49,732 nt of DNA from NCBI GenBank assembly GCA_002771355.1, contig PCSU01000056.1, positions 1 to 49,732 on the forward strand, read 5' to 3'. The notes beneath the pieces were generated by a model. That model worked only from the letters and a program-made list of their open reading frames with translations. It did no database searches and was not told the DNA's origin. Shown one piece after another: positions 13,770 through 38,873 of the stretch (within the stretch, counting starts at the first letter, position 1; the number at the start of each line of letters is the position of its first letter). Both the position numbers and the translations under genes were made by a program. The DNA is from a candidate division WWE3 bacterium CG22_combo_CG10-13_8_21_14_all_39_12 (lineage in GTDB: Bacteria > Patescibacteriota > 4484-211 > GCA-002791395).

Positions 13770-14909
13770 CTACACCTGCCCACGAGCACTTCGCGAAATG
13801 TTTATCAAAATCCCAACCGAAACAAGAAGTAATGTTAATGAAGTGCCCCCGTAACTTATAAAAGGAAGTGGTACACCAGTCAGTGGCATTAATCCAACCA
13901 TTCCCCCTAAATTCACCAACGTTTGAAACGCAATTGTAGTGGTAATACCAACAGCCAAAAATTTACCAAACGGATCTGAAGCTCTTTGTGCAATTGTAAT
14001 TCCTCGCCAAATCACAAATGCAAGTGCACCAATTACTAAAATCGCACCTATAAAACCTAATTCTTCACCGATAATTGCAAATATAGAATCAGTCGTAACC
14101 TCTGGGATATACTCATATTTTTGGCGAGAACTCCCTAGTCCAAGCCCCAATATGCCACCTGACCCCAGTGCAATAAATATTTGTGTAATTTGATATGAAA
14201 CTCCCTGAGGATCCGCCAACGGGTCCAGAAATGTGAAGATTCTTTGCCTTCTATAATCACTCGATAATGCATAAATAACTGCAGAAACAGCTCCTGATAT
14301 CCCAGCAAGACTTATCCAAAACAATGATGCTCCCGCAACAAAATAGACCATAAGCGCTGTTACAGAAATCAAAATTGCGTTTCCGAGATCAGGTTCTAAT
14401 GCCGTTAAAAGTAGAATTGTACCAACAACAACTAAAAATGGCTTGTGGGGCAATCCTCTTCGTATATCTTTATCAAACAAAGCAGCCAAATATATAACGA
14501 TGCTTAACTTAGCGATCTCAGATGGTTGAACTGATATGCTTTGCAAAAATGGCACCGGTATATATAGGCGCTGCTTTGCACCATACACCTCTTGTGAAAA
14601 ACCAGGGAGTAGTACGACAAGAAGTAAAATAATGGTTAAAACAATAAGTGGAAATGCAATCTTTTTTAAAACATGATAATCAATATTACTTACAATAAAG
14701 GCTCCAACTATACCAATAAATGCCCATATGCTCTGGTTTTTTAAAAACCAAAACTTGTCCCCAAATTCTTCAAATGCAACAACGACACTTGTGTTGTAAA
14801 CCATAAACACACCAAACAGCGTGAGTGCTAACACAACTCCAGCAAGCACATAATCTGTTACCGCAAAGGTTCTTATTTTAAAACTGTTCTTTTTTGATCG
14901 TACGGGCAT
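13770..14909 (-). CDS. ftsW: FtsW/RodA (SEDS) peptidoglycan polymerase
   Basis: About 10 TM helices. SEDS motifs QPSEIAKL, PDLGN, TDSIFAIIGEELGFIG and PLPFISYGGTS. Confidence 0.9.
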   Translation of the reverse strand: MPVRSKKNSFKIRTFAVTDYVLAGVVLALTLFGVFMVYNTSVVVAFEEFGDKFWFLKNQSIWAFIGIVGAFIVSNIDYHVLKKIAFPLIVLTIILLLVVLLPGFSQEVYGAKQRLYIPVPFLQSISVQPSEIAKLSIVIYLAALFDKDIRRGLPHKPFLVVVGTILLLTALEPDLGNAILISVTALMVYFVAGASLFWISLAGISGAVSAVIYALSSDYRRQRIFTFLDPLADPQGVSYQITQIFIALGSGGILGLGLGSSRQKYEYIPEVTTDSIFAIIGEELGFIGAILVIGALAFVIWRGITIAQRASDPFGKFLAVGITTTIAFQTLVNLGGMVGLMPLTGVPLPFISYGGTSLTLLLVSVGILINISRSARGQV

Positions 14910-16224
14910 GATTAATTACATCCTCAGGGAACATTTCTAAAGATTGAATTTCAAAAAGTTGCTCATTACTAGATACACTCCTTCCATCACCAATTGTAAG
15001 TAATAAAAATTCATCTTTGGTCAACCCGCCAACAGTATATTGAGATGAGATAAATTCAATTCTTTGATCTCCTCCAACATAAACCCCATTAGGGGGGGTG
15101 TGATTAATAATCACCTGTGATGCTTCAGTATTTCTTGAAATAACTCTCATTCCCTTCAGCTGTTTTGTGAAAAAGTATGGATCATCGATCATGGTATCGT
15201 TAATAGTAATACCAAAGCTTTTATAATGTTCGTTTAAAAGACTTGATCCACATACCTCCTGTTCAAGTTGAGTTATCATCTGGGCAGAAGCTGTAAACCG
15301 TGGATTCATCTCCTGGGCATAAACTCTTGCATGCTCATCTACCAAAAAATCCAATCCAAAAAAACCACGATATCCAAGATCACGCGCAATTGTTGCTAAC
15401 TTAACTGTTATTCTCCCAATGTCAAAAACAACGTCCTTTGTCTTAGTACTAAAATATGGTACAAGGTCCGTCCATACGTTTCCAACAGTACTACCCTCCA
15501 TACGAGCTAAGGGAACCTCCTCATTCATGTCATCATTTATTTGAATAAAAGGATACGTTTGATAAACTTCACTCTCTGAAACTACAGCATTAATAGTAAG
15601 TGTTGTTCCTGGTATAAACTGCGATACTTTTACCTTACGATTACTATACTGATCTCGCAAACTGAATAGATCCGACTCACTTTCAAGAAAAAATGTACGG
15701 TTCCCAAACCAACCTCTTTCAAACTGAACAACCATTCGTTCTCCAAATTCTTGAGACAATGAGTCAAAATGAAGATTATTTAAGTGCTCAACACGAGACG
15801 GCGGGTGAGGTATCTGGTGCTCCTTACACATGCGAACAAAGTTTAATTTATTTTCTAATAGCGAACTTACGGCTGGCGATGCATTCAAAGAACGTATTGT
15901 ACGAGATTTACCTAATGGCGTTTCAGCTATCACTTTCTCTAATGAAAATAATGGTTTAAAAAATATAATCCCCACCTCATCAACACTTCTTTTTAAGATA
16001 AACTCTTGAACTGCATCATGAAGTAACAATTTACGACTATTACGAACGATTATGTCTCCCCCCAATTCTTTTTCAATACAAAATACCGATACACCTTTTT
16101 CTATAAGCATATCAACAATATCGGTATAGTCGACGCAAATCACATGAAAATTCTCATATAAATCTTCAATGCCAAGGGCCCGTAAAGGATCTGTTGCTAC
16201 GTAAAATATTGGTAATCTTTCCAT
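14878..16224 (-). CDS. ATP-grasp family ligase of unknown substrate, occupying the usual murD position
   Basis: 448 aa. C-terminal ATP-grasp core FFGLDFLVDEHARVYAQEMNPRFTAS. Its stop overlaps the ftsW start by 32 nt and its start is 4 nt after the PLP gene. Confidence 0.7.
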   Translation of the reverse strand: MERLPIFYVATDPLRALGIEDLYENFHVICVDYTDIVDMLIEKGVSVFCIEKELGGDIIVRNSRKLLLHDAVQEFILKRSVDEVGIIFFKPLFSLEKVIAETPLGKSRTIRSLNASPAVSSLLENKLNFVRMCKEHQIPHPPSRVEHLNNLHFDSLSQEFGERMVVQFERGWFGNRTFFLESESDLFSLRDQYSNRKVKVSQFIPGTTLTINAVVSESEVYQTYPFIQINDDMNEEVPLARMEGSTVGNVWTDLVPYFSTKTKDVVFDIGRITVKLATIARDLGYRGFFGLDFLVDEHARVYAQEMNPRFTASAQMITQLEQEVCGSSLLNEHYKSFGITINDTMIDDPYFFTKQLKGMRVISRNTEASQVIINHTPPNGVYVGGDQRIEFISSQYTVGGLTKDEFLLLTIGDGRSVSSNEQLFEIQSLEMFPEDVINHARTIKKEQF

Positions 16225-16228
16225 TTGT

Positions 16229-17119
16229 TTAGGTTAGCACAACTACAACATGACTGTTTATCTTAAAATTTACAGTTTGAGCTTTTATAAATCCCGCATA
16301 AGCAAGCGCTCCCTCCTTTGAAAAATCAGTAACCCCATATTCTGTAAGTGTATTAATTGCAGATAAAACCTCATCATCTGTAACAATCCACCCGGATCCA
16401 TTGGTAGCTTTAACTGCATCAATTACTAACTCTTTTCGATCGGTCTGCCTTGCAACAATACCGGTAACAATACTTCGTGCCTTTTTTCTAAACGTTGTAT
16501 CAAATTTTGAAGCAATAGTATTAATATGTTGCGATTGCACAACATGAATCTGCGGCATACTTTCACGTGGCGTATCAGCCATAACAATACCCTCCCAAAA
16601 GCCCTGTACGGTTGTGCCAGAACTAACAGGAAAAAATATACTTACACCATCAACATTCTCACCCTGGGTTTTAATTTGTTGTTGTATTTCATCCCACAGT
16701 GCTTGGTAACCTTTGGTAGCATTACTATCTTTTGATTGTCTCACATACGGAATTGAGTGTTTATGGGAAAAATCTATAGCTCCTTGAATTGCCATTTCTT
16801 GTTTATGAATTATCGCTCCATAGCTAGACAATCTTTCAAACCGAACCGGTTCAATAAAAGGTGGTACAAAAGCATGCAGTGTAATTCCTGCCACCTGACA
16901 ATAGTACGCTGCAGCAACTGAAGCATTCCCCGAAGAAGATACTACAATTTCTCTATGATTCCCCTCAACCATATGGGCAATTTGCCATACCATCCCTCGC
17001 GACTTAACCGAACCAGTAACGTTATGATCTTCTCTTTTTAGCCATACATTTCCAACGTTTTGAAGTGGCGTTTCTGGCCAAGGTAAAGCGTAGTCATTTG
17101 CAAACTGCGAAGCATTCAT
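16229..17119 (-). CDS. Fold-type II PLP-dependent enzyme (Trp-synthase-beta/threonine-synthase/cysteine-synthase superfamily)
   Basis: PLP-lysine motif KREDHNVTGSVKSRG, plus SSSGNASVAAA and a phosphate-loop-like PVSSGTTV. 296 aa. Confidence 0.8.
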   Translation of the reverse strand: MNASQFANDYALPWPETPLQNVGNVWLKREDHNVTGSVKSRGMVWQIAHMVEGNHREIVVSSSGNASVAAAYYCQVAGITLHAFVPPFIEPVRFERLSSYGAIIHKQEMAIQGAIDFSHKHSIPYVRQSKDSNATKGYQALWDEIQQQIKTQGENVDGVSIFFPVSSGTTVQGFWEGIVMADTPRESMPQIHVVQSQHINTIASKFDTTFRKKARSIVTGIVARQTDRKELVIDAVKATNGSGWIVTDDEVLSAINTLTEYGVTDFSKEGALAYAGFIKAQTVNFKINSHVVVVLT

Positions 17120-17172
17120 ATACGTAGTATACTATTTTTTATAAGACAATTGTGTTAAAGGTGGTGAATAAA

Positions 17173-17343
17173 ATGGAAGAAATTCAAACAAAACAAGTAC
17201 CATGTCTAGACTGCGACTCTACTCTTGAGGTCGTTGACGATATTGAGATTGGAGATATTCTAGTATGCGAGGGTTGCGGTGTTGAACTAGAAGTAGTTAA
17301 CAATAACCCCACAGAACTTGATTATCTCTATGTTCAAAAATAA
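17173..17343 (+). CDS. LysW-like zinc-ribbon small protein (amino-group carrier protein fold) lacking the canonical acidic EDWGE tail
   Basis: 56 aa: MEEIQTKQVPCLDCDSTLEVVDDIEIGDILVCEGCGVELEVVNNNPTELDYLYVQK. The CxxC...GE/D-I-hydrophobic-C-E-x-CG-x-ELEVV pattern matches LysW. SD AAGGTGGTG lies 6 nt before ATG 17173. Antisense to the dcw operon. Confidence 0.6.
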   Translation: MEEIQTKQVPCLDCDSTLEVVDDIEIGDILVCEGCGVELEVVNNNPTELDYLYVQK

Positions 17344-17352
17344 AAACGATTC

Positions 17353-18378
17353 TTAGATCGTTGCAATAAAAAGTCCAATAAAAGCACATAAAGCACCAGC
17401 GATCCAAAACCGCATGGTTACTTTTGTCTCATCCCACCCCATCGCTTCAAAGTGATGGTGTAGTGGTGCAATTTTAAATAATCTCTTTTCCCCAAGATAT
17501 CTAATTGAAAACAACTGAATAAGGCTTGATAATAACTCAATAACAAATACCCCTCCAATAATTGGTAACACAAGAGACTTTCCAATAAGTAAAGCTATTA
17601 CTCCCAATAATGCTCCAAATGCTATTGAGCCTGAATCCCCCATAAATAACCGTGCTGGATACACATTAAAATACAAGAACGCAAGGAGCGCACCCATAAG
17701 AACAGCTATAAATAAAATCACATCTCCTGAAAATGTATGTGGTACTGCTAACACCCAAAACGCAGATAATGCAATTAACATAAGTCCTGTTGCAAGACCA
17801 TCCATCCCATCAGTAATATTAAATGCATTGCTCGACGATACAATTACAAATGCAGCAAAGGGAATATATAACCACCCAAGACTTATATCATTAACTCTAA
17901 AAACACTGGAAAGAATCGGGATTTCAACTGTATGTAGTCCGGTGAATTTATATAAGAGGTATCCAATAATTAATCCTAATATTGTCTGAATAATAAGCTT
18001 CTCAAGGGCAGGAAGTGCACGAATCCTGCGTTTACGAACCCGAATCATTTTTCGAAAGTCGTCATACATCCCCAAAACTCCAAATGAGATAAGTGTTACA
18101 AACAAAATAATTGATGTCCAGTTTATAGAAAATGAAGTAACTACATAAAAAATTATAGAGAACAGTAATACTGACCCAAGGATAAGTACTCCTCCCCCTG
18201 TTGGCGTTCCGACTTTCCACCCATGCAAGTCATTAAATACCGTCTTGTTCCCGTGCATATCAACACTTTTTACAGGTTTTTGTCGAATATGTAACTTGTA
18301 AAGTGCATGTATAAATGGAATTGCAAGCGCAGCAGTGAAGATAAAAGATAGAAGTAATATCGCAAATATTTTGTACAT
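17353..18378 (-). CDS. mraY: Phospho-N-acetylmuramoyl-pentapeptide transferase MraY
   Basis: Polytopic membrane protein with NAFNITDGMDGLA, FMGDSGS and PLHHHFE motifs. Confidence 0.95.
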   Translation of the reverse strand: MYKIFAILLLSFIFTAALAIPFIHALYKLHIRQKPVKSVDMHGNKTVFNDLHGWKVGTPTGGGVLILGSVLLFSIIFYVVTSFSINWTSIILFVTLISFGVLGMYDDFRKMIRVRKRRIRALPALEKLIIQTILGLIIGYLLYKFTGLHTVEIPILSSVFRVNDISLGWLYIPFAAFVIVSSSNAFNITDGMDGLATGLMLIALSAFWVLAVPHTFSGDVILFIAVLMGALLAFLYFNVYPARLFMGDSGSIAFGALLGVIALLIGKSLVLPIIGGVFVIELLSSLIQLFSIRYLGEKRLFKIAPLHHHFEAMGWDETKVTMRFWIAGALCAFIGLFIATI

Positions 18379-18384
18379 TTTTTA

Positions 18385-20472
18385 TTATGTTGTATTTAGT
18401 ATCTTTAATCTTCGTACACCATCTCCACGCTCAGGATGAAAATGCACACTATACGCTTCTCCCTGTGGAGTTTTTTCTTGCCATTGTTGTTCCTGCAACG
18501 ACTTTTTAGCATCAACGACTTTGATTATAGCAGTGTGTGGCCCTTGTCGTACGGTTCTTTTATATGAAGAATGTGCATACTCAATCTCAGTAATAACACC
18601 ATTTTTTCTTGTGATACCAGTAATAATCAAGACATGGTCACCCGGTCTTGCTACACCCATGCGAATCATATCAGATTCTTGAATATCGTTGATATCAGAA
18701 ATGGGAACGGTGTGCTTATCATTTGTTAACATATCTGCACTCACATTTCTGTACCAACGATCCGGCATCAGGGATTTTCGTATCCTGCCAAAAAGGCTTG
18801 TTGGAGTAATAAGTTTAGTAAGACTTGGTATCTCTCTAGTTAACAGATATGCATTCAATACATGGAACACCATGCCAGAACACTCAATGCCAATCTGTTG
18901 CTGTTTCATAAATCTAAACACTTCGGCATCTGAATGGGTTTCAAGATCAAACTCGTTTTCCTGTGCCATTTCAAGTAATTCATGGCGAATCACCTCTGGA
19001 GAACCCTTGCCGGCGCTCCTTTTTATATTAAATCGCTTTTGATTAATAACGTATGGGATTTTTATGTTCTTTTCATTTACCGTAAAATTGATATATTCAC
19101 CTAAGCGTTCCCTCATCGCTCGAGTAGCCTTAGCATGCTTAAGCCTATCAATAAGTCTCTCATCAAGACCATCCATTCCACCTGACGACATCAAAACATA
19201 TACACACGGCAAAGGTTCTGAAATAAGCTTAAAAATTAACACGTCTTGTTGTGGGGCATACATGGTATGCTCATGCGTTTTTGAAATAGCTGCAACAATA
19301 TCTTTACCTGTAACTTTATAATCAGCATCTTTTTTGGCAGACACTTTGGGAATATATAGTTTATCTGCTGCACTAAAGCGATTGTCAAATTCTGTTAATA
19401 CGGCCGGATTTTTAAGCGATGAGGAAAACATGTCAAATACACCAACAACCGTACTGTCTGGCCATTTTTGTTTTATTGATAAAAGCACTGTCTGCGCTTT
19501 TACTGGAGAATGTGCCAAGTCCCTAACAATAACAGTGCCGGCATCGTCATAAATAACTTCCATCCTTTGTTTCAATCCAGCATAAGATTCAAGATGAGCC
19601 TTTACTTGAACAGAATCAAATCCAATCTCTGTTAACAACGTATATGCAGCTGTAAGATTATCTTTATTAAATTCCCCAAGCATGGTCGGTGTCCAGTTAA
19701 GATCAATTGTTTTAATATCTGATGAACCATCATGTGAATACGTTACAACCTTACATGGCGCATGAGATATGGCATCTTTAATGTTTTTACCATCAACATT
19801 TGCAATAAGAACACCATCAGAAGGAAGCTTACTTACTAACTCAATGTAGTTTTTTATATAAAGATCTTCTGTTGGAAACTGATCGTAATGATCCCATTCG
19901 GCTGAGGTTAGAACAAGATACTTTGGCTTATAGTAAAAAAACTTAGATTGCGGCGGTTCACTTGTCATTGGAGGTACTGGATACTCATCTCCTTCAACAA
20001 CTGACCATTTCCCTTGAGAAGAAACCAAACTCTCCTCATAGCCTACCATTTGCCCTCCCACCATATATGATGGATCTTGATGAAGCTGAGATAGCACATG
20101 AACAATTGCACCCGATATCGTACCTTTCCCAAAATTGCCTGCTACAACAATCGACTCATCTTTAACCACATATTCACCAAGAACTTCTGGGTATGAAACA
20201 GTTTTAATATGTAATACTTTAGCCTTTTCAAATTCTGGATTATGAGGGTCAACAATCAATGCATTCCCACCAACTACAACAAGATCCGTCCCAGGTTTCA
20301 GATTATCGGCATTATATGGAGACGAAATCTTGACGCCAATTTTCTCAAGATACGTACTATTTGGCGGATACACGTTTATGTCAGATCCTGAGACATTCCA
20401 ACCCTTTTTTAAAAACATATGAGCCAGGGCAGATGTTGCTTTGCCAGCTATTCCAATAATGTGTACATTCAT
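18385..20472 (-). CDS. Mpl-type Mur ligase (UDP-MurNAc:murein-tripeptide ligase-like) fused to a ~250-aa C-terminal Cys/His peptidase-like (NlpC/P60- or transglutaminase-like) domain
   Basis: The N-terminus HIIGIAGKATSALAHMFLKKGWNVSGSDINVYPPNSTYLEKIGVKI closely parallels E. coli Mpl (GSDANVYPPMSTLLEKQGIE). Also VEGDEY, AEWDH, RDLAHSP and LMSSGGMDGL. Variant P-loop AGNFGKGT. Extra C-terminal region (aa ~446-695) has GIECSGMVFHV ... PGDHVLIITG ... EYAHSS. Confidence 0.75.
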   Translation of the reverse strand: MNVHIIGIAGKATSALAHMFLKKGWNVSGSDINVYPPNSTYLEKIGVKISSPYNADNLKPGTDLVVVGGNALIVDPHNPEFEKAKVLHIKTVSYPEVLGEYVVKDESIVVAGNFGKGTISGAIVHVLSQLHQDPSYMVGGQMVGYEESLVSSQGKWSVVEGDEYPVPPMTSEPPQSKFFYYKPKYLVLTSAEWDHYDQFPTEDLYIKNYIELVSKLPSDGVLIANVDGKNIKDAISHAPCKVVTYSHDGSSDIKTIDLNWTPTMLGEFNKDNLTAAYTLLTEIGFDSVQVKAHLESYAGLKQRMEVIYDDAGTVIVRDLAHSPVKAQTVLLSIKQKWPDSTVVGVFDMFSSSLKNPAVLTEFDNRFSAADKLYIPKVSAKKDADYKVTGKDIVAAISKTHEHTMYAPQQDVLIFKLISEPLPCVYVLMSSGGMDGLDERLIDRLKHAKATRAMRERLGEYINFTVNEKNIKIPYVINQKRFNIKRSAGKGSPEVIRHELLEMAQENEFDLETHSDAEVFRFMKQQQIGIECSGMVFHVLNAYLLTREIPSLTKLITPTSLFGRIRKSLMPDRWYRNVSADMLTNDKHTVPISDINDIQESDMIRMGVARPGDHVLIITGITRKNGVITEIEYAHSSYKRTVRQGPHTAIIKVVDAKKSLQEQQWQEKTPQGEAYSVHFHPERGDGVRRLKILNTT

Positions 20473-20474
20473 GT

Positions 20475-21257
20475 TTAATGTGAATCACGTTTTATATTTA
20501 AAACGTCAACAATGCCTTTGTAACCATTAATATCTAACCACTCTTTATCTTTAAGAAGTTCTTGCAAAGACTCTTTATTAAGTAGATATTTGAGTGCATC
20601 AATATTTGTATTCCATTTTGATCCATCGAAAAATTCAAACCCAGAAAAATTCGTTTTGTAGAGTGAGGCTTGAGAATACGCTGTTCCCAAATATGCATAG
20701 GACAAGCCATCATTTTTTGCCCAATTAATTGCCTCTAACATCATGCGTGAACCCAATCCACTAGCTGATACTGCGGTGTTAATAAACGCCATCCAATAGA
20801 ACATACTGCCCCCAGATACCATAACAGGTATCATTCCTGCTATACGATCATCATCTTGTCGCTTCCACGTAAAAATCACATCACTCATATGATGAGAAAA
20901 CATTCGTTTTATTGCATGATCGGAAACCTTTGCATCCCCCATTACATCAATAACAAATTGGCGCATCCATAATAAATCTGTGTTATTAATTCTCACTGAA
21001 TCACTTGATTGAATGGTGAAATGATATGGCGATGTTTTTTTTATAACGCGACGATTTTCTGAAGAAGGTTCAAATTGATTAAGATCAATTCGCGTTGAAC
21101 GAGCAAGATACCATAAACCAATTTTCATTCTCGAAGGCAAAAAACCCATGTTAAGTAATGAAGCTTTATCTTCATTATTATCTTCTAAGGCCCACACTTG
21201 ATACGGAAACGCATAGTCATTATAGGAAGCAAGATGTTCTGAGAATAGTAACTTCAT
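20475..21257 (-). CDS. ATE/Bpt-family (arginyl/leucyl-tRNA--protein transferase-like) aminoacyl-tRNA transferase homolog
   Basis: 260 aa. GFLPSR...RIDLNQFEPSSENRRVIKK parallels Bpt GFRRSG...RV..F.PS.SQRR. The C-terminal LSYAYLGTAYSQASLYKTNFSGFEFFDGSKW parallels the ATE_C motif YLGY...YK..F.P.E....W. The N-terminal Cys cluster of Bpt is absent. Confidence 0.6.
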   Translation of the reverse strand: MKLLFSEHLASYNDYAFPYQVWALEDNNEDKASLLNMGFLPSRMKIGLWYLARSTRIDLNQFEPSSENRRVIKKTSPYHFTIQSSDSVRINNTDLLWMRQFVIDVMGDAKVSDHAIKRMFSHHMSDVIFTWKRQDDDRIAGMIPVMVSGGSMFYWMAFINTAVSASGLGSRMMLEAINWAKNDGLSYAYLGTAYSQASLYKTNFSGFEFFDGSKWNTNIDALKYLLNKESLQELLKDKEWLDINGYKGIVDVLNIKRDSH

Positions 21258-21335
21258 ACATACTATTTTATGGGATTAGTCTACAAAGAGCAAAGTTAAA
21301 TTTTTAATCATGGACACATATATTAAGATAAAGGC

Positions 21336-22802: not shown

Positions 22803-22833
22803 AAATTAATGCTCAGATAAAACTGTTCAAATC

Positions 22834-23955: not shown

Positions 23956-23957
23956 AT

Positions 23958-24977: not shown

Positions 24978-24979
24978 AA

Positions 24980-26227: not shown

Positions 26228-26228
26228 A

Positions 26229-27515
26229 TTATGAATTGCTAGTCAATTTCGTCATTGTTTGTAAATTAATCAAAGACCTTCCCTCAAAAAGTACTGCAAC
26301 TGATCCGACCTTGTTAACCATTTCATCATAGAGTTGTTTAGCTGATACAACAAGCTTCGCATGAGCATAATACTTGGCGTGGAAAGGTTCAACAATATAA
26401 AAACCATCAACACGTGGGAAAATTTCTTGGTCCAACGCACTGTTTACAGATTGCGATTCTTCGCCTAACTCATATACTCCCGTACAAACCACAATATGAC
26501 GATCAGCAGGGATTGAAACAAGTTTCTCGACAGCCGCTCGAAATCCTGTGGAATTGCTATTATACGTATCATCAATAACAGAAAGATTATCTGAAACCTT
26601 TGTTATTTGCATACGTGATTGTTGTGGATTAATATGTGAAATCCCTTGCGCAATCTGATCCTCGGTCATTCCCAGCAATGCACCAACAACACGTGCGGCC
26701 TGGACATTTTGATCAACGTTTCGTGACTCATACGTCATTATTGCAACATCAATATTTTTGACAAGCTCCTCAACATTTTTGTCTGCAACATTTAATACAG
26801 CTGTACCGTTTACATCAAGTGCATCAATCAACTCCATTTTTGCTTTTATAATATTTTCCTTACCACCAAAAAGACCAGCATGCTGTTCATTAAGTCCTGT
26901 CATAACACCAATTTTTGGTTTCATCGCATCAGCGACAAGCTTTATTACCCCTTGATAATATGCTCCCATTTCTACGACATATACATCATATGAAGCATCT
27001 AAGTATCGTAATGCATGGAGGGCAACACCAATCTCACCATTGGCACTTTTGGGTGTTCTTAAAACTTTAAATTTTTCACTTAATACGTCGGCTATAACTT
27101 CTTTTGTTGTGGTCTTTCCGTACGATCCAGTTACACCAATCACTATAAGGCTCGGAAACATAGCCCGCTTACGTTTTGCCAGAAACAATAAAAATCGTTC
27201 AACAAAAAACGATGGTATTGACCATAAAAACACAGCCGCTGCTATAGCGAATGGTCCTCCAATAACAACTAAAAACGCTACACATACAACCCAAAATAGC
27301 GATAGCTTTGGAATAGTGACTAGTGGGAAAAGTACTATTACTGCAGCAGTAAGAGAAATAAGGACAATCTTAATCGTAATCTTTGGACGTTTGCGTTGAC
27401 CTGATAGTAATAAACGGACTCGATCTTGTGGAGTTAAAGACTGAATAAATAACACCATTCGATCTCGTCTATATCCTTTGAGTTGCCATTGATATAACCA
27501 GTAAATAAAATTCAT
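26229..27515 (-). CDS. murF: MurF-like Mur ligase with the N-terminal domain replaced by a ~110-aa membrane anchor (2-3 TM helices)
   Basis: VIGVTGSYGKTTTKE, ANGEIGV, VVEMGAYYQG, NEQHAGLFG and IDDTYNSNSTGFRAAVEKL are MurF signatures. The N-terminus IVLISLTAAVIVLFPLV...LFWVVCVAFLVVIGGPFAIAAAVFLW is hydrophobic. Confidence 0.8.
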   Translation of the reverse strand: MNFIYWLYQWQLKGYRRDRMVLFIQSLTPQDRVRLLLSGQRKRPKITIKIVLISLTAAVIVLFPLVTIPKLSLFWVVCVAFLVVIGGPFAIAAAVFLWSIPSFFVERFLLFLAKRKRAMFPSLIVIGVTGSYGKTTTKEVIADVLSEKFKVLRTPKSANGEIGVALHALRYLDASYDVYVVEMGAYYQGVIKLVADAMKPKIGVMTGLNEQHAGLFGGKENIIKAKMELIDALDVNGTAVLNVADKNVEELVKNIDVAIMTYESRNVDQNVQAARVVGALLGMTEDQIAQGISHINPQQSRMQITKVSDNLSVIDDTYNSNSTGFRAAVEKLVSIPADRHIVVCTGVYELGEESQSVNSALDQEIFPRVDGFYIVEPFHAKYYAHAKLVVSAKQLYDEMVNKVGSVAVLFEGRSLINLQTMTKLTSNS

Positions 27516-27521
27516 ATGTAT

Positions 27522-28250
27522 TTATGTGCGTTGGGTAAAACGCATAATTTCTTTAACCACAATCTCAGGATGTTCGTATAAAAACGAATGCCCGCGCCCC
27601 TCTACTGCGACAAGCGTTGATTGCGGTATTTTCTCACTCCATACTTTTGACATGGTAAATGGTGTTGCCTTGTCTTGCCTTGCCCACAACAATAATGTTG
27701 GTACTTTAATCCCCATAAGATCTTCACGAATGTCTTGCGATAAAACTCGACTTAGGATGGATTTTAGTCCTTCTGGTGCCTGCGCATAATCATAAGAACC
27801 TGTACCTTTTGTCCATAGTTTTGTAACACCAGACTTAAAGACAGAAATTATTGGTAAAGAAAATATAATAGATCCCCACGAGGCCAACTGTTTTTTTATG
27901 TCTAAAATCAGGTTTTTGGTCCGTACACCTGACGGATTAACCACCACTAAATGTGAAGCAAGAGTTGGATACTTTGCACTACACAATGCACAAACAGCCC
28001 CACCAAAGGAATGTCCAACCAATACGACAGGTGCCTTAGCATTGTTTACTATGTACTCTTCTAACCATTGTGCGTACTCAGAAATACCCCAATCTGTTGG
28101 AGGTACATTCGTTTGTCCAAAACCGGGCAAGGTTGGAACTAATACACGGTATCCTAGACCATTGAGTTCATCTTCAAGTTTTTTAAGTGGATTTATTTTA
28201 TATGTCCACCCGTGAACAAGAACTATTGTTACATTATTCTTGATATCCAT
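27522..28250 (-). CDS. Alpha/beta-fold hydrolase
   Basis: VLVHGW, nucleophile elbow VGHSFGG, and C-terminal GRGHSF. 242 aa. Confidence 0.8.
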   Translation of the reverse strand: MDIKNNVTIVLVHGWTYKINPLKKLEDELNGLGYRVLVPTLPGFGQTNVPPTDWGISEYAQWLEEYIVNNAKAPVVLVGHSFGGAVCALCSAKYPTLASHLVVVNPSGVRTKNLILDIKKQLASWGSIIFSLPIISVFKSGVTKLWTKGTGSYDYAQAPEGLKSILSRVLSQDIREDLMGIKVPTLLLWARQDKATPFTMSKVWSEKIPQSTLVAVEGRGHSFLYEHPEIVVKEIMRFTQRT

Positions 28251-29502
28251 AAATTTTCATACCTAGCTTTGCCAATGAACTAAAGATATTTTGATGTACA
28301 TCCTTGATCGCATTTGAATATGATATTTCTGAAGTCCCTGATGCAGCCTGTGCACACAAAAGCGCACTCACAGCTGACTCATATGACTCTGGTGCAAATT
28401 TTGTTGCCCTAAATTTATGTGGACCAAATATTCTCACTTCAGATGTAAATGGATCCGATGGTAATACCGTGACTTCAACCCCACAGGAGGAAAGCGGGCT
28501 TACAATTTCTGACACCTTATGCTTTTCAATAAACAATTGGGATTCCCCATCAGACAATCCAGAAATGACGCTTAATACTGATTGCCATATGAGGGGTAAT
28601 CTTTGAGACTCACTAAGCGTTTGAATAGATGGGGTAAATACCTGGTCTTTTTGCCACACTCTTAAAACCTCTTTATCAAGACTAAATTCAACACCACGAT
28701 CTAATAATCGCTTTGTTATCCGTGATAATGATTTATTGGGAAAGTTAGTTATTTGTATATCTCCTCTAGAAACTGCAACCAATGCCAAATATAACAAGGC
28801 TTCGCGTGATGATGGCGGAACCACATACAAAATTCCAATAAGTTCAGGGACAGACTCGACAACAATTTCAAGATTATCTCCTTGAATATGAACCCCCATT
28901 TGTGTAAAAACAGCTTTTAAAATATCAAACTCCTCTGAGGGAGCACATTGCTTAATCGTTGTCTTTAAACCACTTGTGGCTAACGTAAGGGCAACGAGCG
29001 AGGCAAGCACCTTATCTTCAAAGGACATCTCTGATGGAAGAGTAACCGCACAATCTTTTTTTGTTGTGGGCAAATATGCAACTACATAATGGGACTCTAA
29101 CTCAACGGTTACACCAAATGCCTCTAGGATTGGACGAAGGTATGAATGAGATGCAATAACAGTCTCGGGAATGCCGGCCTTTCCAAATCGTGCGAGTAAT
29201 GTTGCCCAAATCAATACAAGTTCAAATGTAGTAAGAGTTTTGTTGGGAGGAATCGCCGACATTGAAATTGATTCTCCATGAATGGAAACCCCATCATCTG
29301 TTAGAATTTGAGCTCCAATAAAGGCAAGTATTTCTGTTGTATCCCCTAATGTTTTACAATCTGGTGGATTTTTTACAACGGTCGGGTTCTGTGACAATAT
29401 TCCTGCAATAAGTGCGATTTTAGAAGCCATAACACTCTCAGATAGTGTTACCTCTCCCGTTAAGTAGCTATTCCCCTCAATTGTTATTGTTTCTATCTCC
29501 AT
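28234..29502 (-). CDS. MurA/EPSP-synthase-fold protein with degenerate active-site residues
   Basis: 422 aa, alignable by eye to MurA. LTGEVTLSESVMASKIALIAGIL parallels [23 protein letters not shown], and LLARFGKAGIPETVIASHSYLRP parallels [22 protein letters not shown]. The K22/N23 equivalents are V/M, and the loop has no Cys or Asp. Confidence 0.65.
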   Translation of the reverse strand: MEIETITIEGNSYLTGEVTLSESVMASKIALIAGILSQNPTVVKNPPDCKTLGDTTEILAFIGAQILTDDGVSIHGESISMSAIPPNKTLTTFELVLIWATLLARFGKAGIPETVIASHSYLRPILEAFGVTVELESHYVVAYLPTTKKDCAVTLPSEMSFEDKVLASLVALTLATSGLKTTIKQCAPSEEFDILKAVFTQMGVHIQGDNLEIVVESVPELIGILYVVPPSSREALLYLALVAVSRGDIQITNFPNKSLSRITKRLLDRGVEFSLDKEVLRVWQKDQVFTPSIQTLSESQRLPLIWQSVLSVISGLSDGESQLFIEKHKVSEIVSPLSSCGVEVTVLPSDPFTSEVRIFGPHKFRATKFAPESYESAVSALLCAQAASGTSEISYSNAIKDVHQNIFSSLAKLGMKIYGYQE

Positions 29503-29644
29503 GTTTTACTCTAAAACTATTTTTATATCTAGTAAAAATCACCATTTGGTAGCCCTCGTCACCTCTTTAGCCGTTATTGCCGGCATATGGGGGTTTTATT
29601 ACAATATTAGTGTATTATAGCCAATTTTTTGAGATAACGCACAT

Positions 29645-31573
29645 TTACGCTGGTTCAATCTGAAAATACACCATTAAATCTTGGGCAAATTGAAACCACA
29701 ATGGAACAACCGTATCTGCAGAGAATGACGATGTTGTTGGTTCGCTGAGCTTCATAATCAGCACAAATTGAGGATCATCTATCGGAGCAAAACCAACAAA
29801 TGTTGTATTGGTTTTGTGAGGGTCATACGCCCCATTTACAGGAATCTGGGCTGTGCCCGTTTTCCCACCAATACTATAATCCTCCATTCCAGCATTCTTA
29901 ACAAACCACTTAAACTCACCATCAGTTACTACTTTTCGAAGCATCAACCGAAGCATTTCAGAGGTCTCCTGGCTTATTGGTTCAGAAATTATTTCAGGCT
30001 TTACAACAATCTCGGTTTTATTTCCTTTATTATCGTAATCAATAAGTGTATCCACAATATGAGGTTTATATAGGTTGCCACCATTTATTAATGAAGAAAA
30101 TGCTGAAACCATTTGAAGTGGTGTTACAGAAATACCTTGGCCAAACGACATGTTTGCTAGATCAATATCCCTCCACATTGATTGATCTCTAACAATTCCC
30201 CACTCTTCACCCTGAAGATCAATCCCTGTTGGACTTCCAAAGTTAAAAGCATCAATATACTTTGCAAATGTTTCAAAACCTACCCTATGTCCAACCCATG
30301 CAGCACCAGTATTGTTTGAGTGTTGCAAAATCTCTGTCATAGTAATTGTTCCCAAATATCGATTATTCCATGTCCGCACTGAAAACCCACTGTATACAAC
30401 GGGCCCAACATCATCAAACGTAATAGAGGGAGTAACTAACCCTTCATTAAGAGCCATGGACAATGTTATTGGTTTTATAACTGATCCTGGCTCGTAATTT
30501 CCACCTATTGAAAGATTCCGAAAAACCTCAACTTTTCCAACATCTGACTCTCCTTTTAACTCATCAGACCAATACTCAGGTAAGTACGTAGGATAGTTTG
30601 CCATTGCAAGAATGCGTCCCGTGTTGGGTTCTAAAAGTATTGCAGTTCCGTTTTTAGCATCATATTTTTTAACACCTTCCTCAAGCCTCTTTTCAAGAAG
30701 ATACTGTAACTCACGTTCAATAGTAAGAATCAAATCCCTTCCGTGAGACGGACTTTTTTGAAACTGCTCTCCATAGGGAATTGGTCGCCCATTAACATCC
30801 GTTTCTGTAACAACATACCCTGAACGACCAGAAAGATCGCCATCATAAAACCCTTCAAGACCAAAATAACCCGTATCACGTCCCGTTACATTTTTTCCCA
30901 CAAACCCCAAAACATGTGCTGCAAATGTCCCCTCAGGGTATGAACGTTTTTTATTAGCTTGAAAATGAAGCCCCAAAGAATTATCTTTTTCAATTGATTG
31001 TTTTTGGTTTCGATCCAGTCCTACAATCATTTGTACATATTGGTTACTATCATCCTTTAGCGCTTGTGATAATTCTTCTTTGATTACTTCTTTAAGAGTA
31101 TCCGGCCAATCTGACTGTTCTAAAGGCAAAGTATATCTGAATTTATGAATAGTGATTGGAAGCGAAACATCTACAGAAACCTTTTCATCCTCCTTGGGTT
31201 TAACATATAATCGTTCATGAATTTCTTTATCAACCGGCTCAGCCTTTAGCATCTCATCAATATGTTTATATAATATATCTACGCTTTTCCCTTTATCCTC
31301 CATTTCCTTGGGAACTGCAAACAATAAATATGTGTCCGCATTAATCACCAACGGATAGTTATCATGAGTATATATTTCTCCACGTCTTGCTATGAGCTCT
31401 TGTTCAACAACGTGCTGATCATACGCCAATGCTTTGTAATGTGCATGGTCTAATATCATGATCTGACCCAATCGCAGTGCAACGATGAAAAACCCAAAAA
31501 TAATACTTGATTTAATAAGTCGTAAACGCCAATCCATAATTGTAATTATGCAATGATTCCACCGGAAAAACAA
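29645..31573 (-). CDS. ftsI: Class B penicillin-binding protein / FtsI transpeptidase
   Basis: N-terminal TM helix, SxxK (GSVIKP), SxN (HSNN) and KTG (GKTGTA) motifs. The ORF-track start is TTG and Met13 is an alternative. Confidence 0.92.
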   Translation of the reverse strand: MFFRWNHCIITIMDWRLRLIKSSIIFGFFIVALRLGQIMILDHAHYKALAYDQHVVEQELIARRGEIYTHDNYPLVINADTYLLFAVPKEMEDKGKSVDILYKHIDEMLKAEPVDKEIHERLYVKPKEDEKVSVDVSLPITIHKFRYTLPLEQSDWPDTLKEVIKEELSQALKDDSNQYVQMIVGLDRNQKQSIEKDNSLGLHFQANKKRSYPEGTFAAHVLGFVGKNVTGRDTGYFGLEGFYDGDLSGRSGYVVTETDVNGRPIPYGEQFQKSPSHGRDLILTIERELQYLLEKRLEEGVKKYDAKNGTAILLEPNTGRILAMANYPTYLPEYWSDELKGESDVGKVEVFRNLSIGGNYEPGSVIKPITLSMALNEGLVTPSITFDDVGPVVYSGFSVRTWNNRYLGTITMTEILQHSNNTGAAWVGHRVGFETFAKYIDAFNFGSPTGIDLQGEEWGIVRDQSMWRDIDLANMSFGQGISVTPLQMVSAFSSLINGGNLYKPHIVDTLIDYDNKGNKTEIVVKPEIISEPISQETSEMLRLMLRKVVTDGEFKWFVKNAGMEDYSIGGKTGTAQIPVNGAYDPHKTNTTFVGFAPIDDPQFVLIMKLSEPTTSSFSADTVVPLWFQFAQDLMVYFQIEPA

Positions 31574-31581
31574 AGAACAAA

Positions 31582-31923
31582 CTACCGGGTAGCTATTGAA
31601 CGTTCGTCTGGGGTTTCAGAAATAAACACCAGGTGTGAAAATGACCTATCCATGCTAAATTCCTCGCGAGCCTGTTTTTCAATCTTTGGCATCGCTGACA
31701 ATGCAACAATTTCTTCTCTTAATACTTCCATCTTGTCCTCGAGTTCTAGTTTGCGATTTTCGAGTACTGAAATATTCTGACCTGTTGTTGCAACCTGAGC
31801 TGCAAAAAAGATTTGTGCTGAAAAGGCGACAACGACAGCAATAATAAGAGTACTCATCGCAGTTATGTTTCGAAGTTTATTCGACATGGTTTTTTTTGTG
31901 TTTTCAGTTATTTTTCTATTCAT
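31582..31923 (-). CDS. ftsL: FtsL/FtsB-like septal protein (single TM + coiled coil)
   Basis: 113 aa. TM helix MSTLIIAVVVAFSAQIFFAA followed by heptad-like ENRKLELEDKMEVLREEIVAL. Position between rsmH and ftsI, with a 4-nt overlap with rsmH. Confidence 0.6.
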   Translation of the reverse strand: MNRKITENTKKTMSNKLRNITAMSTLIIAVVVAFSAQIFFAAQVATTGQNISVLENRKLELEDKMEVLREEIVALSAMPKIEKQAREEFSMDRSFSHLVFISETPDERSIATR

Positions 31924-32807
31924 ATTTTTTCTGCTATACGCATCTTTGCTGACCTGGCACGCGTGTTTCGACTAATTTCCTCGTCAGATGGAACTATAAC
32001 CTTGGTTGTTATTACCGTTATGTCCTCTCTGGCTTTAAATGCATGTTTTACAATCCTATCTTCTAAAGAATGAAACGATATCACTACAATTCGAGCACCT
32101 TTTGAGGCAATGTCCATAGCTTGAGATAAACCCGTTTTTAATACTTCAAGCTCGTCATTGACTGCTATGCGTAATGCCTGAAACACCTGTGTACTAGGAC
32201 TAATGTTTCGCGACCAACGCGAACCGTAGGCCTTTTCAACAACTTTTGCTAGATCACCAGTTGTCAATAGTGGACAAATGTCTCTTGCCTTAACAATCGC
32301 CTGAGCGATTCTTTTAGGCATAAAAACCTCACCATATGTTGACAACAATATTGTTAACTCCCTCTCGGTCAAACCATTAACAAGATCAGCGGCTGTCACT
32401 GCATTTCTTTTATCCATGCGCATATCAAGTGGGCTATTTTCCAAAAAAGAAAATCCTCGATGTGATTTATCTAGTTGATCGCTTGATAAACCTAAGTCAA
32501 AAAGAACACCAGAAATTTCAATGTCTTGTAACTCAACTACTTCTTTAAGATGTTCAAAACTTCTGTTAACAATTCGTACTGATGAATTGCCTGCAAACCT
32601 TTGGTTCAATCTCTCGACTGCATCAGCATCTTGGTCAAAACCAAGTACTTTTCCGCCCCTATTTAAGATCTCTTGTGTATGACCTCCTCCACCCGAGGTC
32701 GCATCAATATGCCACTTCCCAGGGACGACCTGTAATGCGTCAATCGCTTCATTTTTTAATACGGTAATGTGCAAACTATCCGTTTTTTGTTTTTCTTCTA
32801 GCATCAT
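31920..32807 (-). CDS. rsmH: 16S rRNA m4C1402 methyltransferase RsmH (MraW)
   Basis: HITVLKNEAIDAL, IDATSGGGGHT, FDLGLSSDQLD and VISFHSLEDRIVK. I chose ATG 32807, which is preceded by GGGGAA. The ORF-track TTG start is at 32819. Confidence 0.92.
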   Translation of the reverse strand: MMLEEKQKTDSLHITVLKNEAIDALQVVPGKWHIDATSGGGGHTQEILNRGGKVLGFDQDADAVERLNQRFAGNSSVRIVNRSFEHLKEVVELQDIEISGVLFDLGLSSDQLDKSHRGFSFLENSPLDMRMDKRNAVTAADLVNGLTERELTILLSTYGEVFMPKRIAQAIVKARDICPLLTTGDLAKVVEKAYGSRWSRNISPSTQVFQALRIAVNDELEVLKTGLSQAMDIASKGARIVVISFHSLEDRIVKHAFKAREDITVITTKVIVPSDEEISRNTRARSAKMRIAEKI

Positions 32808-32820
32808 TAAATTCCCCAAT

Positions 32821-32856
32821 CATATTGATTCCTTGGAATCATATTGACTGCTTGGA
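32821..32856. repeat. Two tandem ~17-19-bp direct repeats (CATATTGA[T/C]T[C/G]CTTGGA) abutting the rsmH start
   Basis: Copies at 32821-32837 and 32840-32856 differ at 2 positions. On the minus strand each copy contains a TATGAT -10-like hexamer. Confidence 0.7.
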
Positions 32857-32890
32857 GTCAATAAACGTCATCTGCAGAAAAGGTGTAGCA

Positions 32891-32929
32891 GTTTGTAACC
32901 AAAGTTTGTAACTAAGGTTTGTAATCAAA
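32891..32929. repeat. Three perfectly phased tandem 13-bp repeats GTTTGTAA[C/T][C/T]AA[A/G] in the mraZ-rsmH spacer
   Basis: gtttgtaaccaaa (32891-32903), gtttgtaactaag (32904-32916), gtttgtaatcaaa (32917-32929). The minus-strand core is TTACAAAC. Confidence 0.85.
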
Positions 32930-32945
32930 CCACATGTCACCATAA

Positions 32946-32966
32946 AAACAGTTATCGTAACTGTTT
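32946..32966 (-). other. Perfect 9-bp stem / 3-nt loop hairpin downstream of mraZ (possible weak terminator or attenuator)
   Basis: aaacagtta-tcg-taactgttt. On the minus-strand transcript the stem runs into UUUUUAU. The stem is AT-rich, so termination efficiency is uncertain. Confidence 0.4.
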
Positions 32967-33030
32967 CGGAACAGTGCGGTGTTTGACCACCACTTTCCGC
33001 AGATGCGTAAATCCAGCAGGCTTTTCCGTT

Positions 33031-33468
33031 TTAATCGTTTACGTTTACTAACCTATTCGCTATCTCAACTGATTCTCGAGCCATTTGTGCTCGGTACTGC
33101 TCCCATTGATGTTCGTCCCACAGTTCAATCCAATTTCCCAGCCCAACAAACACCACATCATCACTAGCAATATGTGCATGTTCTATAAGACTTTCTGGGA
33201 TAACTATTCGTCCCTGTGAGTCCACATTGAGTTCGTGAGCACCACCCAACAAAAATCGTGTTGCTTCTCTCTTATCAGCCGAAATAAACGGTTGATCTGT
33301 AACCCCTTCCAATAATGTTTCAAAGTGCTCCGGTGTAACAATTACAATGCTGTTCTCATATCCACGTGTGGCAATAACAGTATCGCCAGAAATTTTTTTC
33401 CTCAATTTTCCTGGTATCGCTACTCGTTTTCCTTGTGTACATGATGCTTTGTATTCGCCTAAAAACAT
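33031..33468 (-). CDS. mraZ: Transcriptional regulator MraZ
   Basis: MFLGEYKASCTQGKRVAIPGKLRK plus a second SpoVT/AbrB-like repeat (DSQGRIVIPESL). 145 aa and first gene of the dcw cluster. Confidence 0.93.
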   Translation of the reverse strand: MFLGEYKASCTQGKRVAIPGKLRKKISGDTVIATRGYENSIVIVTPEHFETLLEGVTDQPFISADKREATRFLLGGAHELNVDSQGRIVIPESLIEHAHIASDDVVFVGLGNWIELWDEHQWEQYRAQMARESVEIANRLVNVND

Positions 33469-38872: not shown

Positions 38873-38873
38873 T

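Follow-up and report, generated by a model that had tools for sequence, protein, structure and literature searches.

The DNA analysed here, a 49.7-kb stretch (the window; G+C content 38%) from a candidate division WWE3 bacterium (contig PCSU01000056.1), carries a division and cell wall (dcw) gene cluster with orthodox flanks and an unusual set of enzymes between them. The cytoplasmic Mur pathway (MurA to MurF, Ddl, MurI and Alr), a major target of antibiotics, is considered almost universal. We know of essentially no description of the wall chemistry of the candidate phyla radiation (CPR, or Patescibacteria), which makes up a large share of bacterial diversity.

Pfam and NCBIfam scans place the dcw cluster on the minus strand, running from position 33468 down to 9142. 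Its 5' half consists of mraZ, rsmH, ftsL and ftsI, followed by genes for a MurA-fold protein, an alpha/beta hydrolase, a MurF-like ligase, a DegT-family aminotransferase, a FemAB-family transferase and MurE. The 3' half continues with rel (plus strand), an ATE-like transferase, a fusion of an Mpl-like ligase to an NlpC/P60-like domain (Mpl-like::P60), mraY, a zinc ribbon protein (plus strand), a pyridoxal 5'-phosphate (PLP) enzyme and an ATP-grasp enzyme; after the ATP-grasp gene come ftsW, murG, ftsQ, ftsA and ftsZ. A DUF4012 protein is also encoded in the window, as are homologs (50-54% identity) of proteins attributed to candidate division WWE3. A preliminary description, made from the nucleotide sequence and its open reading frames (ORFs), had proposed orthodox flanks (mraZ to ftsI and ftsW to ftsZ) around a core without canonical murC, murD, murB or ddl. 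Pfam scans bear out the flanks, and the absence extends beyond the core: none of MurB, MurD, Ddl or a cutoff-passing MurC was found with Pfam or NCBIfam among all ORFs of the 49.7-kb window. Every domain call of that description was reproduced in these scans. Contigs that extend the window on both sides contained no mur genes; the longest contig read (95 kb) stops just beyond the window edge on the ribonucleotide reductase side, and the other side holds further polysaccharide genes and an AbiE toxin-antitoxin pair.

The short gaps and overlaps between minus-strand genes that had been described were confirmed by measurement. They range overall from -32 to +8 nt, besides three larger gaps (142, 1576 and 233 nt) and spacings of 57-211 nt within the orthodox flanks. 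Core intervals are -17, 6, 1, 2 and 2 nt from the MurA-fold gene to murE, 2 and 6 nt from the ATE-like gene to mraY, and 4 and -32 nt from the PLP enzyme gene to ftsW; rel lies in the 1576-nt gap and the zinc ribbon gene in the 233-nt gap. Scans of the window for tRNAs and Rfam families gave no matches, and the number of sites found in a promoter and terminator scan was not above that in shuffled sequence.

The arrangement is not a product of chance or of assembly, because an index of the assembly collection lists an identical 695-aa Mpl-like::P60 protein in 58 blocks and the same gene order is present on a 1.13-Mb contig of GCA_040960375.1 (locus L003), with genes that are 25-60% identical. 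A scan with a 10-sequence alignment of the P60 family, limited to one genome per species, gave 62 loci. Nearly all are from CPR-type metagenome-assembled genomes (Dojka-, Gottesman-, Levy-, Roizman- and Woesebacteria and WWE3), some of them with automatic non-CPR labels, and all were annotated by comparison with E. coli reference enzymes and the proteins of the window. The synteny comparison showed that the non-canonical set recurs in relatives, in full order in L003 and otherwise as three modules. Module M1 comprises a LysW-like carrier (the zinc ribbon protein), the PLP enzyme, the ATP-grasp enzyme and the P60-like peptidase, the last three of which occur together in 33 loci. Module M2 is the ATE/Bpt-like transferase followed by the Mpl-type ligase. 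Module M3 contains the alpha/beta hydrolase, a transmembrane (TM) MurF-like ligase, the DegT-family protein and FemX, which are found together in the window, L003 and L018.

The modules are joined to ligase genes in several ways. The more distant locus L005 reads ftsI, MurE, Mpl-like, MurB, MurF, P60, mraY, zinc ribbon, PLP enzyme, ATP-grasp and ftsW; L022 reads ATE, Mpl-like, zinc ribbon (opposite strand), PLP enzyme, ATP-grasp, P60 and mraY; and Gottesmanbacteria have P60, a MurD-like ligase, the zinc ribbon, the PLP enzyme and the ATP-grasp enzyme, in that order. In 11 related loci mraY lies no more than 1.5 kb from the P60 gene. Fusions include ATP-grasp::P60 (n = 12), P60::MurD-like (n = 1) and Mpl-like::P60 (in the window, P0002 and P0003). 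Across 16 loci, MurD-like genes (7 loci) are found in none that has an ATE-like gene (9 loci) or an Mpl-like gene (9 loci). No MurD was detected in the dcw clusters of the window, L003, L005 or L018, although MurE, MurF and MurB occur in such clusters, and a Nomurabacteria locus (L072) that brings MurF, Mpl-like, MurE, MurB and MurA together contains neither MurC nor MurD. Since murB adjoins the modules in relatives that share them (L005, L018, L053, L059 and L067), the sugar moiety, judging from gene content, is probably ordinary MurNAc. A search of a 5.8-billion protein set with the L005 MurB gave no GCA_040960375.1 match among the 120 listed of 839, and the matches listed plateau at 35-38% identity.

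The putative carrier module

The zinc ribbon gene lies on the plus strand at 17152-17343 (probable start 17173, giving 56 aa) and scores 44.7 bits against PF21344, for which the cutoff is 27; the cutoff was also passed in four of the five relatives tested. A member of the family matches LysW of T. thermophilus (3wwl) with E=4e-7, in an alignment that extends only to residue 48 of the 54-aa Thermus chain. By these sequence comparisons the protein is a genuine LysW homolog. True LysW ends in a Glu residue (EDWGE) that carries the cargo. The LysW-like proteins end instead in Lys (37 of 37), and 19 of the 37 have the tail EEEK; the window protein ends in ...LYVQK. They are acidic (median pI 4.3, n = 37), as known amino-group carrier proteins (AmCPs) are (PMC11726168). 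The gene lies next to the PLP-enzyme gene, usually divergently, in 36 other loci, 25 of them identified by profile search and 11 belonging to a Dojkabacteria variant. The antisense zinc ribbon is not incidental to the cluster; it is a conserved core member of the four-gene module. The carrier module with its C-terminal Lys is the most original element of the arrangement, and the preliminary description under-rated it.

The neighbouring PLP enzyme (16229-17119, minus strand; 296 aa) is a threonine-synthase-like protein of fold-type II (PF00291, 139 bits). The family profile matches threonine synthase 2zsj with 119 bits, followed by a second tier (76-84 bits) that contains serine racemase (83 bits), aspartate racemase (76 bits) and threonine dehydratase. 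The PLP-binding Lys and an SSSGN motif are conserved in the family.

The ATP-grasp ligase (14878-16224, minus strand; 448 aa; Pfam ATP-grasp_3) resembles biotin carboxylase (BC) and PurK. Its AlphaFold2 model, made with 15 database homologs, has a pLDDT of 91.7, and every one of the top 50 Foldseek matches (about E=1e-17) is to a BC domain or to PurK (N5-CAIR synthetase). A profile search of the PDB gave no Ddl, LysX or RimK at E<=1. With no Ddl among the top 50 folds either, a Ddl-like or LysX-like ATP-grasp enzyme was ruled out.

The fourth member of M1 is encoded in the window as residues 448-695 of the Mpl-like::P60 fusion (18385-19131, minus strand) and in relatives such as L003 and L005 as a separate 251-aa gene. 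The family comprises 387 cluster representatives, in which Cys84 and His166 are invariant within the pattern GI[DE]CSG...PGD..H...YxHS, with the YxHS element conserved. PF00877 is matched weakly by 30 of 46 relatives (best E=3e-5) and is not matched by the window domain, and a comparison with the sequences of solved structures gave no match. The AlphaFold2 model (pLDDT 95.8) has as its top Foldseek matches the gamma-D-Glu-L-diamino-acid endopeptidases 2evr and 2hbw and also CwlO (probability 0.90-0.95); weaker fold matches include glutathionylspermidine synthetase/amidase (Gsp) and trypanothione synthetase. The invariant residues, the weak family matches and the modelled fold thus specify what had been called a Cys/His peptidase-like domain: this C-terminal extension is a putative cytoplasmic peptidase of the NlpC/P60-like type. 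Among the longer members of the family, P0207 has the domain fused to a MurD-like ligase, P0199 carries a C-terminal extension of ~210 aa, and P0257 (2521 aa) contains 13 stretches that match it.

M1 can be compared with two groups of characterized systems. The LysW/AmCP pathways of Thermus, Sulfolobus and Streptomyces (DADH) likewise combine an acidic LysW-homologous zinc ribbon protein with an ATP-grasp enzyme, a PLP enzyme and a hydrolase. They differ in each part: their carrier tail ends in the Glu of EDWGE, whereas that of M1 ends in Lys (mostly EEEK); their ligase is LysX/RimK-like rather than BC/PurK-like; their PLP enzyme is a fold-type I aminotransferase rather than a ThrC-like enzyme of fold-type II; and their hydrolase is the M20 enzyme LysK rather than NlpC/P60. 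Their kinase and reductase have no counterpart in M1, whose context is peptidoglycan synthesis; no kinase, reductase or M20 hydrolase (partners of the LysZ/Y/J/K type) was found in M1 of the loci examined. Gsp and the tubulin tyrosine ligase/vasohibin pair resemble M1 in that an ATP-grasp-type ligase is paired with or fused to a papain-like cysteine hydrolase (CHAP/NlpC-P60 or transglutaminase-like) whose target is an amide bond. In the tubulin case this bond lies at an acidic C-terminus of the protein. Domain order and families differ in those systems, and M1 adds a PLP enzyme and a dedicated carrier between ligation and hydrolysis.

Two variants of the module's surroundings were observed. 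In the Dojkabacteria loci L019, L024, L026, L027, L030, L034-L036 and L041, a gene for a 174-aa protein resembling S-adenosylmethionine (SAM) methyltransferases (e.g. L030 7705-8226) sits between the PLP enzyme and ATP-grasp genes, and the LysW-like protein has an insertion of ~25 aa between its two CxxC pairs. In the Gottesmanbacteria loci L032, L033, L037, L038 and L042, genes for GT2 and GT4 glycosyltransferases, a histidine phosphatase and a PAP2-family phosphatase run upstream of the P60/MurD-like/carrier module.

The ligases, the transferases and the other core genes

The 695-aa fusion protein (18385-20472, minus strand) consists of a MurC/Mpl-family ligase and the 248-aa C-terminal Cys/His domain. 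Its ligase part (residues 1-447; 19132-20472, minus strand) has all three Mur ligase domains and is, by sequence, a predicted UDP-MurNAc ligase of the Mpl type and not of the MurC type. BLAST gave 152 bits to E. coli Mpl as against 82 to MurC; 119 of the 120 homologs listed were closer to Mpl than to MurC; and the top match in the PDB was Psychrobacter Mpl (3hn7). In alignments the start of Mpl, NVYPPxS and EGDEY (which contains the Mpl Tyr) are common to the two proteins. Tyr182 and an (S/T)AFFDKRSK segment are Mpl-specific features (PMC3060825). At the site of the latter the window ligase has a degenerate insertion that ends in SKF, and near-canonical versions occur in L044 (TAKWDKRAK) and L046. 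Where MurC has PHRFTRTR the window ligase reads FDMFSSSLKN, without the L-Ala-binding H-R..R, and together these observations ruled out a MurC identity and upheld the Mpl-type assignment already proposed. We use the name 'Mpl-like' because both curated cutoffs were failed (TIGR01081 for Mpl, 167.9 bits against 388.7; TIGR01082 for MurC, 209 bits against 335). The window ligase thus shares with Mpl the three-domain MurC/Mpl architecture, NVYPPxS, EGDEY and an insertion at the motif site, and differs in its score below the TIGR01081 cutoff and its degenerate motif. It is also unlike Mpl in lying in a dcw cluster as the only MurC/Mpl-type ligase, fused to P60 and paired with an ATE-like gene. Overexpressed E. 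coli Mpl accepts L-Ala and can replace MurC, and L-Ala-D-Glu is among the substrates assayed (PMC3060825). Two Mpl-like homologs, P0028 (769 aa) and P0052 (750 aa), are fused to MurB domains (FAD_binding_4 and MurB_C), which links this family of ligases with the de novo synthesis of UDP-MurNAc.

Directly upstream, at 20475-21257 (minus strand), is the gene for a 260-aa putative aminoacyl-tRNA transferase with the GNAT fold of the ATE/Bpt group. The window protein scores 24.8 bits against ATE_C (PF04377; cutoff 25) and relatives score 29 and 36.4 bits; NCBIfam arginyltransferase models match it at E=8e-11, and Pfam detected no ATE_N domain. The ATE-like and Mpl-like genes co-occur in nine other loci and the former is directly upstream in eight of the nine, the exception being an aberrant 481-aa ORF call in L053. 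ATE enzymes act on N-terminal Asp or Glu, and we know of no role for ATE/Bpt enzymes in peptidoglycan synthesis. Among the FemABX, ATE/Bpt and L-F transferases, FemX of M3 is a clear family member and the 260-aa protein has the ATE_C GNAT core; it differs from ATE/Bpt enzymes in lacking ATE_N, in its length of only 205-260 aa and in its constant coupling to an Mpl-like gene. In the Nomurabacteria locus L072, the position directly upstream of the Mpl-like gene, which elsewhere is the ATE-like slot, is taken by a gene (8694-9983) for a 429-aa protein with no Pfam match; the MurA of the same locus (13909-15429) has an N-terminal helix-turn-helix domain.

The four genes of M3 lie upstream of murE. 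The alpha/beta hydrolase (27522-28250, minus strand; 242 aa; Abhydrolase_6/1) is encoded next to the MurF-like ligase also in L003 and L018. That ligase (26229-27515, minus strand; 428 aa) has only the Mur_ligase_M and C domains; it scores 190.5 bits against TIGR01143 (cutoff 288.6) in a match that begins at model position 63, and its best matches among solved structures are MurF. TM segments occupy its N-terminus in place of domain 1 (hydrophobic stretches at residues 44-113), as had been described, and its L003 and L018 orthologs are likewise TM-anchored; the predicted anchor suggests that the enzyme acts at the membrane. The DegT/DnrJ/EryC1-family PLP aminotransferase (24980-26227, minus strand; 415 aa; PF01041, 197 bits) is kept in L003 and L018. 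Enzymes annotated as sugar aminotransferases have elsewhere been reported or suggested to act on AmCP conjugates (PMC11726168), and by analogy the DegT protein may act on a carrier conjugate instead of a nucleotide sugar. The FemABX-family aminoacyl-tRNA-dependent transferase (23958-24977, minus strand; 339 aa) scores 143.4 bits against PF02388 (cutoff 24) and 63 bits, under the cutoff, against the FemX model NF047883.

MurE (22834-23955, minus strand; 373 aa) passes TIGR01085 (351 bits against 257.3). In alignments the equivalents of E. coli residues 1-82 are missing from it and from MurE of L003, L005, L006 and L040; its motif reads EDPR where E. coli MurE has DNPR, with the Arg kept in all six CPR MurE proteins aligned. 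MurF lacks domain 1 in L005 and L040 too. The absence of domain 1 from MurE and the MurF-like ligase had been noticed in the preliminary description and taken to point to substrates without UDP. The absence stands. As a pointer it was down-weighted, because the loss is clade-wide and, for MurE, also occurs in Levybacteria L006 near a bona fide MurD (254 bits, above cutoff) and P60, so it is weak evidence.

The MurA-fold protein (28234-29502, minus strand; 422 aa) scores 103.8 bits against TIGR01072 (cutoff 392.7). Aligned with E. coli MurA, it has Val in place of Lys22, a deletion of the Cys115 loop and Ser in place of Arg120. Since the score is below the cutoff and the equivalents of these catalytic residues are missing, it is probably not an active enolpyruvyl transferase, in agreement with the degenerate MurA fold that had been recognized. 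Its L003 counterpart (25% identity over 198 aa) has no Pfam match. The short Rel/SpoT homolog (21336-22802, plus strand; 488 aa; HD_4, RelA_SpoT and TGS) had been counted as a member of the enzyme set. L003 has two small unannotated ORFs at that position, and because rel is missing there the gene is, by this comparison of gene order, a lineage-specific insertion between murE and the ATE-like gene that lies outside the system.

A candidate route to the stem peptide

The late steps of the pathway predicted from this cluster (MraY, MurG, FtsW and FtsI) are orthodox. For the earlier steps, the best explanation of the evidence as a whole, to which we assign a probability of about 0.4, is that the dcw cluster of WWE3-like CPR bacteria encodes a conserved, non-canonical cytoplasmic route to the peptidoglycan precursor that runs through M1-M3. 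That the cluster holds a real and conserved variant of precursor synthesis, whatever its chemistry, is likely. A search of the literature found no description of the cluster or of the module. With the conservation of the modules, this upholds the earlier suggestion of an undescribed variant of wall-precursor synthesis, and the arrangement is best filed as a previously undescribed form of peptidoglycan precursor synthesis; the wording that the precursor core is 'replaced' was not upheld, given the murB genes adjacent to the modules in relatives.

In M1 a dedicated carrier is accompanied by a ligase that uses ATP, a PLP enzyme and a hydrolase of amide bonds, and because of this combination its genes look like parts of a pathway in which a compound would be attached to a carrier protein, modified and released. 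The fusions with MurD-like and Mpl-like ligases indicate positions 1-2 of the stem peptide as the target. M1 might then prepare the position-2 unit (D-Glu or L-Ala-D-Glu) on the carrier and pass it to MurD-like or Mpl-like ligases. The ATP-grasp enzyme would load an amino acid onto the epsilon-amine of the carrier's terminal Lys so that the cargo's alpha-amine stays free; this cargo is most likely L-Glu, bound by its gamma-carboxyl group. The PLP enzyme, which needs a free alpha-amine, would convert the cargo, most simply by epimerisation to D-Glu, and the ATE/Bpt-like enzyme, where present, would place L-Ala from Ala-tRNA on the free amine of Glu. Cleavage of the gamma-glutamyl-Lys bond by the NlpC/P60 peptidase would free D-Glu (for a MurD-like ligase) or L-Ala-D-Glu (for an Mpl-type ligase). 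The Mpl-type ligase could join the dipeptide to UDP-MurNAc, bypassing MurC, MurD and MurI, and MurE, the membrane-anchored MurF-like ligase, FemX and the other M3 genes would extend and tailor the peptide. This specific mechanism with a D-Glu or L-Ala-D-Glu carrier is a tentative proposal that we consider rather unlikely. The broader generalization, that a large part of the CPR makes D-Glu or L-Ala-D-Glu on a LysW homolog of inverted polarity in place of MurC, MurD and MurI, is more doubtful still.

The proposed roles are putative and fit the known chemistry of the families. Several observations weigh against the proposal. The window carrier ends in LYVQK and does not have the acidic EEEK tail found in most relatives; threonine synthase (119 bits) outscores the racemases (76-83) as a match of the PLP enzyme family; the ATP-grasp enzyme resembles carboxylases (BC, PurK) and not known gamma-glutamyl or LysX-type ligases; and the fold matches of the P60 domain have weak E-values (0.015-0.1). 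In L006 and L040, P60 has Mur ligase genes as neighbours, and genes for ATP-grasp and PLP enzymes are missing within 10 kb; the L005 locus, which has an Mpl-like ligase, lacks ATE-like and MurD-like genes. The SAM methyltransferase included in M1 of Dojkabacteria is not accounted for by D-Glu synthesis.

There are partial precedents for this scheme. The MurD2/MurL route of Xanthomonas (PMC8788868) also yields D-Glu without MurI by epimerising a tethered L-Glu; the tether there is UDP-MurNAc-L-Ala and the ligase a MurD paralog, whereas the tether proposed here is a protein. Pseudomurein assembly (pMur) in Methanobacteriales is alike in concept, in that a peptide is built off the sugar and attached as a block, and to that extent a likeness suggested earlier is apt. 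It does not extend to kinship of the ligases: the window ligases are relatives of bacterial MurE, MurF and Mpl, and with scores of 38-74 bits against cutoffs of 550-610 (NCBIfam pMurC/D1/D2/E) membership in the pseudomurein ligases was ruled out.

The main rival is that the ~1-Mb genome has genes for the canonical enzymes MurA, MurB, MurD, Ddl, Alr and MurI outside this cluster and that the Mpl-like ligase acts as MurC, the remaining cluster genes being accessory ones that tailor, recycle or regulate the precursor (FemX bridges, P60 trimming) or serve an unrelated small-molecule pathway. Overexpressed E. coli Mpl does substitute for MurC (PMC3060825), the Mpl-like::MurB fusions P0028 and P0052 fit a ligase of de novo UDP-MurNAc synthesis, and murA is normally, and murB, murC and ddl often, located outside dcw clusters (PMC8871954). 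The murB genes beside the modules in L005, L018, L053, L059 and L067, and the bona fide MurD (254 bits) of L006 near a domain-1-less MurE and P60, point the same way. On the other side, the unusual genes are bound to the ligase steps by P60::MurD-like, Mpl-like::P60 and ATP-grasp::P60 fusions and by tight ATE-Mpl-...-P60-mraY operons, and MurD is missing from the dcw clusters of the window, L003, L005, L018 and L072. These fusions, and the finding that ATE/Mpl-like and MurD-like genes exclude each other across 16 loci, argue against an accessory role, which we regard as somewhat unlikely. The cluster might alternatively serve scavenging, with imported host muropeptides trimmed by P60 and a tri- or tetrapeptide joined to UDP-MurNAc by the Mpl-type ligase. 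Recycling by AmpD, LdcA and Mpl in E. coli follows the same logic. In favour of this, the ligase is of the Mpl type and is joined to a peptidase whose family cleaves stem peptides, and CPR bacteria are described as epibionts with scant biosynthetic capacity (PMC11665869). Recycling needs no ATP-using ligase, PLP enzyme or carrier, and these are the steadiest partners of P60 (33 loci); a retained MurE would be redundant if a tripeptide were attached; and in the loci examined the module is not accompanied by any conserved transporter or AmpD/AmpG-like gene. Host scavenging of a tripeptide, as first envisaged, found no specific support, leaves the conserved ATP-grasp, PLP and carrier genes beside the peptidase unexplained, and is improbable. 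Assembly off the nucleotide with attachment as a block, the other half of that idea, is plausible and stays the best reading.

Two further explanations concern M1 itself. It could be an AmCP-type pathway for a non-proteinogenic or diamino acid (a substitute for Lys, Orn or diaminopimelate at position 3) or for a metabolite unrelated to the wall. In its favour are the genuine LysW homology and the acidity of the carrier, and many Dojkabacteria loci have M1 at a distance from mur genes and with a methyltransferase in it. Lys, Orn and DADH-type diamino acids are products of AmCP pathways, which use enzymes annotated, like DegT, as sugar aminotransferases (PMC11726168). We nevertheless consider this quite improbable, given a terminal carrier residue that is Lys and not Glu, the absence of any enzyme of the LysX/Z/Y/J/K type and the fusions to MurD-like and Mpl-like ligases, which indicate positions 1-2 and not 3. 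Replacement of Alr and Ddl by M1, in which the PLP enzyme would racemise Ala or Ser and the ATP-grasp enzyme make D-Ala-D-X for the MurF-like ligase, would accord with the lack of ddl and alr in the cluster, with the ATP-grasp nature of Ddl and the presence of Ser and Asp racemases in fold-type II, and with the translational coupling of the two genes (4-nt gap). It is very improbable: neither profile nor fold of the ATP-grasp enzyme has specific similarity to Ddl, the fusions and adjacencies are with MurD-like, Mpl-like and mraY and not with MurF, and the carrier with its invariant Lys and the fused peptidase would have no function in it.

Should the carrier-based route be correct, conserved genes would replace or feed the first peptide-adding steps by way of a carrier, an Mpl-type ligase and tRNA-dependent transferases, which would constitute a new biochemical logic of stem-peptide assembly, and the known range of LysW-type carriers would widen by one polarity and one cellular process. 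The Mpl-like and ATE-like enzymes and the four small proteins of M1 could be expressed in E. coli, as targets for studies of how ultrasmall epibionts of minimal metabolism build their walls.

Flanking and neighbouring genes

The orthodox 5' flank (29645-33468, minus strand) comprises mraZ (33031-33468; Pfam MraZ), rsmH (31920-32819; Methyltransf_5), ftsL (31582-31923; a weak DivIC match) and ftsI (29645-31573; PBP_dimer and Transpeptidase), all on the minus strand. On the same strand, mraY (17353-18378; Glycos_transf_4) lies within the core, and the 3' flank (9142-14909; Pfam) is made up of ftsW (13770-14909), murG (12561-13700), ftsQ (11771-12604), ftsA (10391-11713) and ftsZ (9142-10254).

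Directly downstream of ftsZ are four tandem paralogs of the ribonucleotide reductase large subunit (720, 703, 600 and 581 aa; 132-8341, minus strand), two of which have ATP-cone domains. A cobalamin adenosyltransferase gene (8485-9099, plus strand) adjoins them and also follows ftsZ in L003. On the opposite side of the dcw cluster, a long polysaccharide-synthesis cluster (37421-48559) contains Bac_transf, UbiA, LPG_synthase_TM and many GT1, GT2 and GT4 genes, and within this context sits an AbiEi/AbiEii-type toxin-antitoxin pair (48679-49461, plus strand, and beyond; L074 10001-11547).

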